Of a stretch of 28,744 nucleotides of DNA, positions 1-27,707 are shown one piece after another (the stretch's first letter is position 1; every line of letters starts with the position of its first letter). This DNA is from a virus. Its lineage: Duplodnaviria; Heunggongvirae; Uroviricota; Caudoviricetes. Both the position numbers and the translations under genes were made by a program. The stretch is taken from positions 1-28,744 of the IMG/VR virus record IMGVR_UViG_2923307698_000001. The stretch is one strand, 5' to 3'. The notes under the pieces are model-generated. The model saw only the letters and a list, made by a program, of their open reading frames with translations. It was not told the DNA's origin and searched no databases.

Positions 1-52
1 CTACGCTTTCACGTAACCCCTTGATTTATTTGTTGAGCTGGCGGTGTCTGAA
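1..52. repeat. Distal att-site direct repeat: degenerate copy of the ssrA 3' end plus terminator region
   Basis: Positions 1..32 are identical to 27655..27686. Positions 33..52 continue the match to the tmRNA 3' end with a 1-bp deletion and a few mismatches (ttgagctggcgg vs tggagctggcgg). The repeat may extend left of the window. Confidence 0.7.
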
Positions 53-217
53 TTGGTGCTGTAATTGGTTGAAATATTTATTCTAATGTCTGGTTCAACT
101 TTCCTTAGCTGCCTGAAAGTTTTTTTGATCTTACCCATCAATAATAGGGTTACGGTACACCACGCCTGACTGATGAACTGCGTGCTCAGGGTTACCTCTT
201 CAACGTAAAACCGTGGC

Positions 218-400
218 AGGAGGTCCGGACTGAAAAAACTGCTCAGGACATTATCGGCGGTGGACGCACGGGTAGTCTGTAAACCGAACCGACTGGGGCG
301 CAGTATGTGGCATCTTGTCGTGCTGTTGGAGGAGCTGTGCAAACGTGGTATTAACTTTCGTGCTCTGGCCCAATCTATATTTGCCCAACAATGGGGGGAC
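218..400 (+). pseudogene. Serine recombinase (Pin/Hin/Gin-type DNA invertase) internal fragment
   Basis: Translation KKLLRTLSA..RLGRSMWHLVVLLEELCKRGINFRALAQSI aligns with the middle of the intact Pin at 19219..19785 (KKLLRTLSAGDTLVVWKLDRLGRSMRHLVTLIEELRQRGVNFRSLTDSI). No N-terminal catalytic region or C-terminal HTH is present. Confidence 0.6.
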
Positions 401-777
401 GAATGCTGTAAAAGTAAAAGAATCTGCGATCTCAAAGTTATTGTGTTATTTTTATGTGAGCAGAAGATATTCATCAGAAACGATTATGTAAATCATTTTA
501 TTTTGCCGACGGCCTGATTGTCGAAAGAAAAGAATACCCCCGTATTCCCTGAATAGATTGACTTTTTTATCCAACCATACTTCAGCGCACTGCGTTTAAA
601 AAATGCTTCTTTCTTATGTGGAATATCATCATTTCATCATGATGTCTTTGATGAGCGGTGAACACAATACACTTGCGCTGTCTCTTCAGGATGAATCCCC
701 TGGTCTGGTGCCTGTGGGCTGATGTTGCAGCAGAGCTAAGGTCGCTTAAACGCTACTCAGTATTCACTTTTCAGAGG

Positions 778-1218
778 ATGAAATTTATGAACAGGACCAG
801 TCCCCATTATTGTCGCCGCTCAGTACTTTCCTTATTGATATCTGCCTTGATATATGCCCCGCCTGGGATGACGGCCTTCACTCCTGATGTTATTGGTGTG
901 GTAAACGATGAGACTGTAGATGGCAGCCAAAGAGTAGATGAACGAGGTACAACAAATAACACTCATATTATCAACCATGGCCAGCAGAATGTTCATGGCG
1001 GGGTATCTAATGGAAGTCTTATTGAATCGGGTGGATATCAAGATGTAGGAAGTCATAACAATTTTGTGGGGCAGGCTAATAATACAACCATTAACGGAGG
1101 AAGACAGACAATTCATGACGGGGGCATTTCCGCCGGTACGATAATCGACAGTGGCAATCAGGACGTTTATACAGGTGGTATCAGCAATGGAACGACAATT
1201 AAGGGTGGTAATTCACAC
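778..1218 (+). pseudogene. Autotransporter adhesin (AIDA-I/Ag43-like passenger) N-terminal fragment, truncated by IS insertion
   Basis: ATG at 778 preceded by agagga. Hydrophobic signal-like N-terminus (RRSVLSLLISALIYAPPGMTA) followed by degenerate Gly/Asn/Thr-rich repeats of the form GG.S.GT.I..GNQ.V. The frame runs straight into the IS end at 1219. Confidence 0.5.
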
Positions 1219-1226
1219 TGTAGTGG

Positions 1227-2144
1227 TCAAGTAATATTGGCCACGGTTTTACAGTAAAAATGGTATCTGTTCTCTGACTCTTCCGGCGTCAGCCCACCGT
1301 TATAATGGTGAGGTCTGACGCTGTTGTAGTAGTTCAATATGTAATCATTAATTTGCTGCCGGGCCTCGTCCTTGCCTGCGTAACCATTCGTTGGCACCCA
1401 TTCTGTTTTCAGACTGCGGAAGAAGCGTTCCATGGGGCTGTTATCCCAGCAGTTTCCCCGCCGACTGACGCTTTGATTTATTCTGCAACGCCAGAGAAGT
1501 TGTTGATATTTAAGGCCTGTATACTGGCTTCCCTGGTCGCTATGGAACACGACATCCCGGGGTTGGCCACGCGTCTCATAGGCCATCCGCAGGGCACTGC
1601 TTATCAGTGCGGTATCGGCATGCGCTGACAGACTCCAGCCGATAACCCTGCGGGCAAAAAGATCCATAACAACCGCCAGATAGCACCAGCGATTTCCTGC
1701 CCAGAGATACGTAATATCTCCACACCATACCCGGTCTGGCTCCGGTACTGCGAACTGACGCTCAAGCAGATTCGGCAGGCTGGTATGCTCCTGACGGGCA
1801 TTTTTATACTGATGTTTTCCGGGCTGACAACTGCTCAGGTTCAGATATTTCATCAGACGTCCGGCACGGTAACGGCTCATCGGGACGCCGTTTTGAGTCA
1901 GCATTTCAGCCAGAGTGCGCGCGCCCGCAGAGCCCCGACTTTGGTTCCACGCCCGGCGTATTTCGCTGCACAACCTGACTCGTGCCGGATTAACCGTATC
2001 GCGTCGTTTTCGCCAGTACCGGTAACTGCTGCGGTGTATTTCCAGAGCAGAACACAGGCTGACAACCGTGTGGCTGTCACTTAGTCTGGCGGCTATCGTG
2101 AACCGTTCAGCGAGTCGGACATTAAGAGCGCGGTAGCCTTTTTT
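1227..2144 (-). CDS. IS3-family transposase OrfB (DDE catalytic domain), expressed as OrfAB fusion by -1 frameshift
   Basis: ORF 1227..1973 contains a DDE-transposase-like motif ([31 protein letters not shown]). The A AAA AAG slippery heptamer sits on the minus strand at plus-strand 2138..2144 inside orfA (ILKKATALL). The upstream limit is approximate. Confidence 0.8.
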
Positions 2145-2404
2145 AATATCGTATTTTGTTCCTCCAGACGGCGAACTTGCTTTTCCAGCTCGCGGATACG
2201 TTGCTGGTCTGGAGTAATGGGTGTGGCAGAGGGCGTAATACCCTGGCGCTCTCGCCTGAGCTGGCGTACCCAGCTCTCAAGCGTGGTTGAACCGACATTC
2301 ATCGCTTCACTGGCCTGTCGATATGAGTAGCCCTTATCAACAATCAGCTGTGCACATTCCAGCCTGAACTCAGGGGTGAAGGTTCGTTTGGTTTTCTTGT
2401 TCAT
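2093..2404 (-). CDS. IS3-family transposase OrfA (HTH)
   Basis: [55 protein letters not shown]...[21 protein letters not shown] at 2404..2402 on the minus strand. The C-terminal motif is typical of the IS911/IS3 group. Confidence 0.85.
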
Positions 2405-2476
2405 TAAGTCACCTGTTTTGTGTTGTGGTGAGAATATCACCTTTCATCAGGTGGCCAAATTTAGTGTGCCACTACA

Positions 2477-26833: not shown

Positions 26834-27052
26834 ATGATGAATTGTCCAAAGTGTGGTCATGCGGCGCACACAAGGAGCAGTTTTCAAGTAACAGAAAGCA
26901 CCAAAGAGCGTTACTGCCAGTGCCAAAATATTAACTGCGGGAGCACTTTTGTTACCCATGAAACAGTGGTCCGGTTTATTGTGACACCTGCAGTGATTGC
27001 CACAGCCCCTCCACATCCATTGCCAGGTGGTCAGGGCCATATGAATTTTTAA
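26834..27052 (+). CDS. ogr: Ogr/Delta-family zinc-finger late transcription activator
   Basis: MMNCPKCGHAAHTRSS...KERYCQCQNINCGSTF...: C-X2-C-X22-C-X4-C spacing and ~72 aa length match P2 Ogr. Position at the prophage right end next to att, as in P2. Confidence 0.8.
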   Translation: MMNCPKCGHAAHTRSSFQVTESTKERYCQCQNINCGSTFVTHETVVRFIVTPAVIATAPPHPLPGGQGHMNF

Positions 27053-27056
27053 GAAA

Positions 27057-27083
27057 GAGAACCTGCTACGGCAGGTTTTTATT
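27057..27083. terminator. Bidirectional hairpin terminator between ogr and the convergent orphan gene
   Basis: Stem aacctgc / gcaggtt with loop tacg, flanked by an A-rich run upstream and tttttatt downstream. Confidence 0.5.
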
Positions 27084-27561
27084 CATCTGGGATCTCACCC
27101 GTTTCAAGAAAATGTATAAAGCCAGGCTCATCTATGATGATAGTGCCTTTCATCCTGGCTGCCGATACTTTTGATGGGCCTGCATTGTAACCGCAACAGA
27201 GCATCTGAAGGTTTTGGGTTACAGATGTTCTTACCGTTAATCCTTGTTCATTCGCCTTATCAACCAACCTTTCTTTATCTGCTTTCTTAAATCCGGTGAA
27301 ACACACATCGAATGTATTTTTTTTCGGACCTGACTGCTTAGTGAGATGTGAGTAGTTTTCGGGGAGGAATGACGCGCATTCCTGAATGGCTTGTTCTTGT
27401 GAATCGTATTGTTTAAGAATGCGGTCTTTTCGGAAGGTTTTTATTCGATCGGTGTTCTTACAAATGCCCTGTATGTGATTTTCGCTATAACTGATGCTCT
27501 GTATTGAGTGAACACCGATACGACCATTTGCATTGATGTAAACAAAGTGAAGTTCTTCCAT
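27079..27561 (-). CDS. Orphan cargo gene: WYL-like N-terminal motif plus C-terminal BRCT-like domain
   Basis: 160 aa. ATG at 27561..27559 with RBS aagagg 7 nt upstream. N-terminus LHFVYINANGRIGVHSIQ...RIKTFRKDRIL resembles the WYL-domain R-x-F-R-x-D-R-I signature. C-terminus FDVCFTGFKKADKERLVDKANEQGLTVRTSVTQNLQMLCCGYNAGPSKVSAARMKGTIIIDEPGFIHFL resembles a LigA-type BRCT. Region is AT-rich relative to the P2-like genes. Confidence 0.55.
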   Translation of the reverse strand: MEELHFVYINANGRIGVHSIQSISYSENHIQGICKNTDRIKTFRKDRILKQYDSQEQAIQECASFLPENYSHLTKQSGPKKNTFDVCFTGFKKADKERLVDKANEQGLTVRTSVTQNLQMLCCGYNAGPSKVSAARMKGTIIIDEPGFIHFLETGEIPDE

Positions 27562-27587
27562 GTCAAACCTCTTTGCATGATTTCAAG

Positions 27588-27626
27588 ATGGCGACAGGCA
27601 AGATGGACGCAAAAGTCTGTCGCCAT
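27588..27626. promoter_or_regulatory. 10-bp perfect inverted repeat upstream of the orphan gene (possible operator or hairpin)
   Basis: atggcgacag (27588..27597) and ctgtcgccat (27617..27626) with a 19-bp spacer. Direct repeat caagatgg at 27584 and 27599. Confidence 0.3.
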
Positions 27627-27652
27627 TTTGCCGCCACTACCTAAGAAAAAGG

Positions 27653-27680
27653 GGCTACGCTTTCACGTAACCCCTTGATT
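27653..27680 (-). terminator. ssrA intrinsic terminator
   Basis: On the minus strand: GGGGUUACG ugaaag CGUAGCCCC followed by UUUUUCUU, immediately 3' of the tmRNA CCA end. Confidence 0.6.
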
Positions 27681-27707
27681 TATTTGGTGGAGCTGGCGGG
27701 AGTTGAA
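27655..27707. repeat. Proximal att-site direct repeat (ssrA 3' end plus terminator), partner of 1..52
   Basis: Identical to window 1..32 over 27655..27686, with a degenerate match beyond. Confidence 0.7.

Follow-up and report, generated by a model that had tools for sequence, protein, structure and literature searches.

What lies at the 3′ end of the transfer-messenger RNA (tmRNA) gene ssrA in the viral record IMGVR_UViG_2923307698_000001 (Caudoviricetes): one island, or what is left of several? The 28,744 nucleotides (nt) of this record, hereafter the window, carry an intact, full-length ssrA (27685–28047, minus strand) with its chromosomal neighbor smpB (28262–28744, minus strand) at one end, and at the other a second, distal copy of the sequence downstream of ssrA, cut by the window edge (1–32, minus strand, identical to 27655–27686). 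A first-pass annotation, made from the letters alone, had read everything between these copies as one integrase-less island bounded by repeats. We find that the two repeats stem from different events, the copy proximal to ssrA being the arm of a Cartapus-type phage and the distal copy a species-wide relic joined to the arm of a CP4-57-family island, and that the 27.6 kilobases (kb) between them are the integrase-less remains of at least three known mobile elements at the Escherichia coli tmRNA gene. The region from ssrA to ypjCB is very probably a decayed tandem array of integrative elements that has collapsed.

The direct repeat at the 3′ end of ssrA

The tmRNA gene was called by ARAGORN and Rfam (295.8 bits) and encodes the tag ANDENYALAA. 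The exact identity of 1–32 with 27655–27686, on which the first-pass annotation was built, was confirmed: exact 32-mers are expected by chance at a level of about 2e-11, and inside the window the match can be drawn out to 35 nt with one mismatch, or to 45 nt with one mismatch and one gap. The leftward extension that the annotation had proposed was made through comparison genomes, many E. coli chromosomes being 99.96–100% identical to window 1–2476, among them those of B4103-1 (L001) and JNE132847 (L004). In these genomes the repeat runs on for 32 nt past the window edge (L001 7969–8000), and ypjCB, followed by ileY, lies to its left in every one of them. In full, the repeat measures 77 nt, with four mismatches and one gap relative to window 27623–27699, and is made up of the last 14 nt of ssrA and 63 nt of downstream sequence, the terminator hairpin included.

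Next to the distal copy is a displaced, degenerate fragment of the ssrA 3′ end (33–46, minus strand), which has the same orientation as the gene, matches 12 of its last 14 nt (CCGCCAGCTCAACA against CCGCCAGCTCCACCA in the alignments) and is found in K-12 between pinH and ypjB. The degenerate continuation into the last ~20 nt of tmRNA that had been proposed holds for these 12 of 14 nt and goes no further, i.e., what follows CCGCCAGC in the left copy belongs to the outer arm of a CP4-57-type element and is not decayed ssrA. The reading of the repeats as traces of site-specific integration at the ssrA 3′ end is supported.

A terminator scan placed the hairpin serving ssrA at 27676–27649 on the minus strand, where a 12-base-pair (bp) stem is followed by a T-run; this proximal hairpin folds at −23.8 kcal/mol (z = −3.9). 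The complete distal hairpin differs from it by one change in the stem and has a folding energy of −16 kcal/mol. Because the left copy holds only the 5′ half of its hairpin inside the window, the statement that the repeat includes the terminator hairpin stands for the proximal copy, and for the left copy only once the outside flank is added.

The proximal copy is the end of a Cartapus-type prophage

Window 17609–27729 corresponds to Escherichia phage Cartapus 13342–23463 at 99.96% identity, and the identity ends exactly at 27729. Cartapus carries the 47-bp ssrA core and the terminator in its own genome, in the order ogr, BRCT gene, terminator-bearing arm, last 45 nt of ssrA, RES-domain gene, int. 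The SopEPhi record starts and finishes with the same 47-mer, which comprises the last 45 nt of ssrA plus 2 nt (window 27683–27729, minus strand) and is the att core of the SopEPhi/Fels-2/Cartapus phage group, as delimited by the SopEPhi record ends and by the limit of Cartapus identity. Adjoining it, the phage-derived arm at 27617–27682 (minus strand), which holds the hairpin at 27649–27676 and a set of G(C/T)CGCCA repeats, is 100% identical to the attP-proximal arm of Cartapus and 97% identical to that of SopEPhi. The terminator serving ssrA in this strain is thus phage-supplied, which bears out the earlier suggestion that the gene now uses a terminator brought by an insertion. In K-12, ssrA is served by another terminator, which comes from CP4-57.

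The stretch has the 47-bp att core, the phage arm and the adjacent ogr–D late genes expected of a P2/Fels-2-type prophage. From left to right it comprises a Pin/Gin-type serine DNA invertase of the Cartapus type (19219–19785, plus strand; Pfam Resolvase and HTH_7; 99.96% identity to Cartapus), the P2-type late genes FI, FII, E/E′, T, U, D and ogr (19928–27052, plus strand, with ogr at 26834–27052; assigned from the annotation of L002 and Cartapus, Pfam Ogr_Delta and an NCBIfam tape-measure match) and a BRCT-domain cargo gene that in the phage lies between ogr and attP (27079–27561, minus strand; a weak Pfam BRCT match; Cartapus gp32). Nothing in the window corresponds to Cartapus 23464–33368 and 1–13341, where the phage encodes its integrase, its repressor/cox switch and its gpA replication and head genes. 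The stretch is a remnant, not a prophage. Its closest known systems are Cartapus (Peduoviridae, Elveevirus) and the group of the P2-like ssrA integrators Fels-2 and SopEPhi. With Cartapus it shares the tail-fiber cassette, invertase, FI–D, ogr, BRCT gene, terminator arm and 47-bp core, and with SopEPhi the same core; unlike these phages, it has only the right 10.1 kb and is without the RES gene, integrase, repressor, cox, replication, cos, head, lysis, baseplate and 5′ part of the fiber gene. The arrangement of an intact relative can be read in strain 07-4299, where ssrA is followed by the BRCT gene, ogr, the rest of the prophage, the repressor, int, a 45-nt ssrA fragment and then an island with a P4-type integrase. 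A Cartapus-type end at ssrA was found in only 164 of the 5426 complete E. coli genomes (RefSeq) that formed our survey set.

Several features of this end were noted in passing. The product of the BRCT cargo gene (160 amino acids) shows sub-threshold NCBIfam similarity to the BRCT end of LigA and to a DEDDh exonuclease, and genes of the gp32 type are annotated variously across records as ‘exonuclease’, ‘DNA ligase’ or ‘BRCT’; for this protein and for two hypothetical open reading frames (ORFs), NCBIfam gave merely weak sub-threshold matches. On the other side of the Cartapus attP is the RES-domain gene. Each arm of the Cartapus attP carries two G(C/T)CGCCA motifs in the same orientation (window 27617–27645; L007 4120–4150), which are candidate arm-type integrase binding sites, and one and a half of these motifs are retained in the distal relic.

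The distal copy adjoins a CP4-57-family arm

On its island side, the distal copy meets the outer, P-arm-like end of a CP4-57-family island (47–125, minus strand) and not a Cartapus-type phage. This outer arm finishes in ACCAATTCAGACNCCGCCAGC beside the displaced ssrA fragment, and was recognized by a 77-nt alignment just upstream of psaA in K-12, the annotated CP4-57 attR fragment. The first-pass annotation had itself named, as a finding that would count against its reading, a left repeat belonging to a different adjacent element, and that is what the arm reveals. Of the 5426 genomes, 3035 have ypjCB, the repeat and pinH′ joined in this way, among them K-12, where the distal copy lies between pinH and ypjB at about NC_000913.3 2,783,46x–2,783,54x.

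Further into the window the neighbors are again those of K-12: a pinH-like serine invertase pseudogene (212–379, plus strand; from the RefSeq annotation of L001, 99.96% identical, and with 77% identity to Pin at 19348–19481) and an N-terminal fragment of the autotransporter gene ypjA (787–1226, plus strand; L001 and L004 annotation, Pfam AIDA), which amounts to the first 440 nt of the gene, is collinear with K-12 ypjA to 1226 and is cut there by an insertion sequence (IS). Unlike CP4-57, the window lacks intA, alpA and the other CP4-57 genes, and its ssrA fragment does not correspond to psaA but to the unannotated fragment that lies farther out, in the interval from pinH to ypjB. With K-12 IntA as a tblastn query the window gave no match, and an IntA-type integrase next to ssrA was not found. 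In K-12 MG1655 itself, the interval from pinH to ypjB holds a third ssrA 3′-end-like fragment, GCCAGCCCACCA, with the same terminator hairpin (L006 28930–29060; NC_000913.3 about 2,783,429–2,783,559); the RefSeq table of K-12 names only psaA (14 nt) as an ssrA pseudo-fragment.

An Sf-like module behind an IS3-family element

Window 2477–17634 is 99.7% identical to an Sf-like prophage of JNE132847 and 97.7% identical to Shigella phage SfII. The block opens at 2477, directly after an IS3-family element and inside an SfII/SfV-like portal gene (2477–3518, plus strand), so that the start and about 66 N-terminal codons of this gene are lost; a 1-nt deletion, seen as a 1-nt gap in the L004 alignment that begins at 2477, splits the rest into two ORFs, over which the Pfam Phage_portal match is divided. 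Downstream, Pfam matches identify an SfII/SfV-like structural module (3460–17327, plus strand) of prohead protease, capsid, connectors, tail terminator, sheath, tube, tape measure and Mu-type baseplate (gp44–48 homologues), i.e., HK97-type head genes together with a Mu-type contractile tail/baseplate module. The remaining features of a complete Sf genome, i.e., terminase, intact portal, lysis genes, early genes and integrase, are not in the window. Over the structural genes in 2477–17634 identity to SfII, SfI, SfIV and SfV, Shigella/Escherichia phages with an HK97-type head and a Mu-type contractile tail, is 97.2–97.9%; unlike these phages, the module has a truncated and frameshifted portal gene and no terminase, lysis genes, early region, integrase or O-antigen modification genes.

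The whole window occurs in no complete RefSeq E. coli genome, the best match being JNE132847 at 73% coverage. This genome keeps about 10 kb more of the Sf-like prophage than the window and shows the array at an earlier stage: ssrA is followed there by a lambdoid prophage that has its int, then by an ssrA fragment of 37 nt (L004 12539–12575), after which come the remnant of the Sf-like prophage, IS3, ypjA′, pinH′, the repeat and ypjCB.

The IS3-family element (1227–2476, minus strand) was identified by Pfam rve and HTH_Tnp_1 and by its inverted ends. The first-pass annotation, which named Pin and an invertase fragment as the only recombinases, did not mention the DDE transposase of this element (~1227–2476). 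No 3-bp target-site duplication was found with the right edge at 2476/2477 and either candidate left boundary, and in the three genomes compared the right-hand neighbor differs, being the portal gene in the window, a yfjP-like GTPase gene in L001 (B4103-1) and a dam fragment in L004 (JNE132847). The lack of a duplication and the three different neighbors are the typical picture of IS-adjacent deletion or of recombination between IS copies. The left boundary of the element is ambiguous between 1219 and 1227, the 8 nt TGTAGTGG fitting both the IS inverted repeat and K-12 ypjA. Rfam reports a full-length match to the Hfq-binding small RNA isrC at 2286–2408 (minus strand, 150 bits), inside the 5′ part of the IS3 element, where it coincides with the IS leader/orfA region.

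All head and tail ORFs downstream of the portal gene are intact, and the window as a whole keeps two different intact contractile-tail sets: a Mu/Sf-type set with baseplate and fibers (from 7550–17327) and the P2-type sheath, tube, tape measure, U and D (19928–26765). Ogr is retained, and the Sf part has neither lysis genes nor a late regulator; evidence for or against a tailocin-like use of the retained tail genes was not seen. Classical Sf phages integrate at thrW. The Sf-like relatives used here, L013 and JNE132847, sit at ssrA; in L013 (GCA_947859095.1) the Sf-like prophage lies directly beside ssrA/smpB and carries GIY-YIG, M78-peptidase/HTH and Bro-N cargo after the invertase. A further relative with the same tail genes (L009) has its integrase next to dusA. 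Since these sites differ (ssrA in L013 and L004, dusA in L009), the integration module appears to have been swapped among Sf-like relatives.

Two prophages joined within a tail-fiber cassette

The Sf-like and Cartapus-type stretches meet in a tail-fiber gene (17331–17993, plus strand) whose constant part is Sf-like and whose variable part lies in an invertible cassette; a protein identical to its product occurs in Sf-like prophages and also in the assembly GCA_038435545.1, as part of the same chimera. The cassette (17609–19163) was recognized from its inverted repeat and site sequences. It is bounded by inverted 26-bp pix/gix-like sites at 17609–17634 and 19137–19163, and contains two tail-fiber assembly genes and an alternative fiber C-terminus. 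As in the Din family, a serine invertase (Resolvase and HTH_7) adjoins a segment bounded by inverted sites of ~26 bp. The arrangement resembles the Gin/Cin/Pin/Hin segments (the G segment of Mu, the C segment of P1 and the P segment of e14), with alternative fiber C-termini and assembly genes in opposite orientations, and inversion is predicted; unlike those segments, the cassette here doubles as the point of fusion of two different prophages.

The Sf-like identity, measured against JNE132847, stops at 17634, and the Cartapus identity starts at 17609, so that the overlap is the 26-bp pix-like site. However, Sf-like (L010, L013) and P2-like (LF82) prophages share this cassette with an identity of at least 99.9%, and only its flanks discriminate between them. 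Because L010 and L013 share the cassette with P2-like prophages up to ~19110, the crossover can be placed only within the interval from 17609 to ~19110. We rejected the narrower proposal that a crossover pinned to the 26-bp site proves the action of the invertase, given that other Sf-like prophages share the whole 1.5-kb cassette. The chimera is also present in GCA_038435545.1, an independent assembly that is 99.995% identical over 20.7 kb, up to ssrA.

Absence of an integrase and mobility of the locus

The first-pass annotation found no tyrosine integrase in the region. This was confirmed, and no integrase fragment was found either: Phage_integrase has no Pfam match among the 30 ORFs of the window, five integrases used as tblastn queries against the window gave nothing better than E = 0.6, and annotated loci of nearly identical sequence account for the remainder. 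An integrase just beyond the left edge had been named as a finding that would count against a single island; none is present in the left flank of the comparison genomes. The locus is probably immobile, as had been suggested, given that there is no integrase, that the distal site keeps no more than 12 of the 47 core positions and that the arms are mismatched.

The absence of integrases sets the locus apart from the islands that Islander recognizes. That program accepts an island or an array member only with its own integrase and fragment, and the tmRNA gene is the most enriched integration target in its analysis (PMC4383910). Like the Islander islands and arrays in transfer RNA and tmRNA genes (tDNAs), the present locus has an intact tDNA and displaced 3′ fragments that mark island ends, with intact ssrA at one end and a displaced fragment of the same orientation plus 63 nt of common downstream sequence at the other. 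What it lacks for a single Islander island is a tyrosine integrase between the ends and an origin of both ends in one attP × attB event. Unlike the Islander arrays, it has lost both internal fragments and all integrases, so Islander would filter it out or mis-call it as one island.

Origin of the distal copy

To place the sequence that follows ssrA in a wider setting, a 40-nt query from the ssrA 3′ end was used to collect 120 species-representative ssrA loci of Enterobacterales (L016–L135); it replaced a 52-nt exact pattern (terminator plus ssrA end) that had no match among the species-representative genomes. Judged by the 75 nt that follow the ssrA CCA, the loci include a CP4-57 type (47 loci), a GGAC-repeat type as found after K-12 psaA (27 loci), a group of other hairpin types (22 loci) and the hairpin of this window (13 loci). 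That these classes are few and common to distant genera suggests that most Enterobacterales ssrA genes end in element-supplied DNA.

The class with the window-type hairpin has two different continuations. That of the distal copy, GTAGTGGC(A/G)GCAAAATGG, is specific to P2-type arms and belongs to the G(C/T)CGCCA repeat set on both Cartapus attP arms. Among the species representatives with this continuation, ogr, D and U follow in L016 and L114, and the BRCT gene is present in L114 and begins within the 204 nt available of L070. In the GTCCAC-repeat hairpin subclass and in L020 and L098 the downstream content is heterogeneous, with no common phage genes, which does not settle whether the hairpin is native. 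The distal copy is, with somewhat better than even probability, the relic of an older P2/Fels-2-type prophage. The competing account, in which it is the native ancestral ssrA terminator and flank of E. coli, mimicked by the attP of P2/Fels-2-type phages, is doubtful but far from negligible. It draws on the position of the copy beside ypjCB and ileY, conserved in most E. coli, and on the occurrence of the same hairpin after ssrA in distant genera with two continuations, which fits a terminator captured by more than one type of element. However, the homology does not end with the hairpin and extends into the P2-arm-specific sequence, and P2-like genes follow this subtype wherever there is enough flank (L016, L114 and L070). 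A synthetic ssrA–terminator–ypjCB junction, i.e., the empty site that would show the native state, was found in 0 of the 5426 genomes, and Pelludat-type records define just 47 bp of attP/attB identity in Salmonella.

Discussion

The alignments give directly the identity of each part of the locus, the intervals in which the parts are joined and the phage origin of the proximal terminator, and the lack of an integrase is likewise a direct result; from these we infer the following order of events. Each element of the array would have come into ssrA at its 3′ end through recombination by a tyrosine integrase. Counting from ssrA, the array comprises the last 10.1 kb of a Cartapus-type P2/Fels-2-like prophage, whose attP gave the final 45 nt of ssrA and its terminator; the SfII/SfV-like head–tail module; the IS3-family element; the outer end of a CP4-57-family island with ypjA′ and pinH′; and, next to ypjCB, a displaced ssrA fragment joined to an older copy of the same P2-type arm. 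One deletion would have arisen by recombination between 1.5-kb cassettes lying in direct orientation in the Sf-like and the Cartapus-like prophage. It would have removed about 23 kb of Cartapus (23464–33368 and 1–13341) with the RES gene, int, repressor, cox, replication, head, lysis and baseplate genes, and, in addition, the intervening ssrA fragment with the invertase and right end of the Sf-like prophage. The other, an IS3-associated deletion, would have taken the early, lysis and terminase region of the Sf-like prophage and any integrase beyond it. With these two deletions every integrase and every internal att fragment would be gone, and the missing integrase would then be explained by reconstructable losses and not be a property of a novel integrase-less element. 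The separate origins of the flanking repeats would make them a mismatched pair, so the locus should not excise, and the near-identity of all parts to intact phages points to a recent collapse.

Set against this array is the simpler view that a single island integrated once in ssrA, duplicated the 3′ end and terminator as attL and attR, and lost its integrase or never had one. A 77-nt direct repeat flanking an interior without an integrase speaks for this view; yet the interior consists of three unrelated elements, each 97.7–100% identical to a separately known phage or island, the distal repeat recurs in 3035 E. coli genomes, most of them without this interior, and in K-12, its island side is a CP4-57-family arm and not a Cartapus arm, and in intact prophages the far end of Cartapus is a 45-nt fragment next to int. 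We therefore regard a single island as very improbable. It is also very improbable that the chimera is an artefact of assembly across repeats, i.e., IS3 and the common tail-fiber cassette. Both internal junctions do fall at repeated sequences, and no complete RefSeq genome contains the whole window, but the independent NCBI assembly GCA_038435545.1 has the Sf–Cartapus junction and everything up to ssrA, and from its coordinates its contig stops ~77 nt into IS3, fitting the same IS3/portal junction. As to how the two prophages were fused, site-specific deletion by a Pin/Gin-type invertase at the pix-like sites is unlikely, although the overlap of the Sf and Cartapus identities (relative to JNE132847) is exactly such a site and an intact invertase gene is adjacent. 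The cassette identity of L010 and L013 allows a crossover anywhere in 1.5 kb of near-identical sequence, which is ample for RecA, and enzymes of the Gin/Hin/Pin group strongly prefer inverted sites on one supercoiled domain and disfavor deletion. For these reasons we favor RecA-dependent homologous recombination over the invertase.

Some points weigh against the collapsed array. The left flank is taken from genomes that match the window over 1–2476 and not from the source strain of the window. The IS3/portal junction is seen directly only in this window, with the contig coordinates of GCA_038435545.1 alone suggesting the same junction, and an undeleted ancestor with Sf-like and Cartapus-like prophages in tandem was not among the genomes retrieved. 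With regard to immobility, a cognate integrase elsewhere in the source genome could act in trans.

All components of the locus are of known kinds, namely ssrA hotspot arrays, the Fels-2/SopEPhi/Cartapus group, Sf phages, CP4-57 and Gin/Pin cassettes, and the locus is an ordinary outcome at a known hotspot. Williams reportedly described in 2003 both ssrA as the most-used target and tandem arrays marked by displaced fragments. A broader proposal, which we hold to be rather unlikely, is that ssrA in E. coli, as seemingly in a large part of Enterobacterales, no longer has a 3′ end or terminator of its own, so that the last-arrived element supplies both permanently, and that near-identical cassettes in unrelated myovirus prophages act as portable hotspots that collapse arrays into integrase-less hybrids. 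The first part of this proposal would draw on the lack of an empty site in the 5426 genomes, on the element-like classes of post-CCA sequence at the 120 loci and on the P2-relic-like flank of ypjCB.

For annotation, the locus is a caution that a tDNA and a matching distal fragment need not delimit one element, and that what is taken at a hotspot for an ‘integrase-less island’ can be all that is left of several elements after their collapse. It offers a cleanly resolved example of two routes by which a prophage array is immobilized, cassette–cassette recombination and IS-adjacent deletion. The current understanding of ssrA as an integration hotspot is unchanged; in this strain, the terminator of an important host RNA gene is supplied by a phage.

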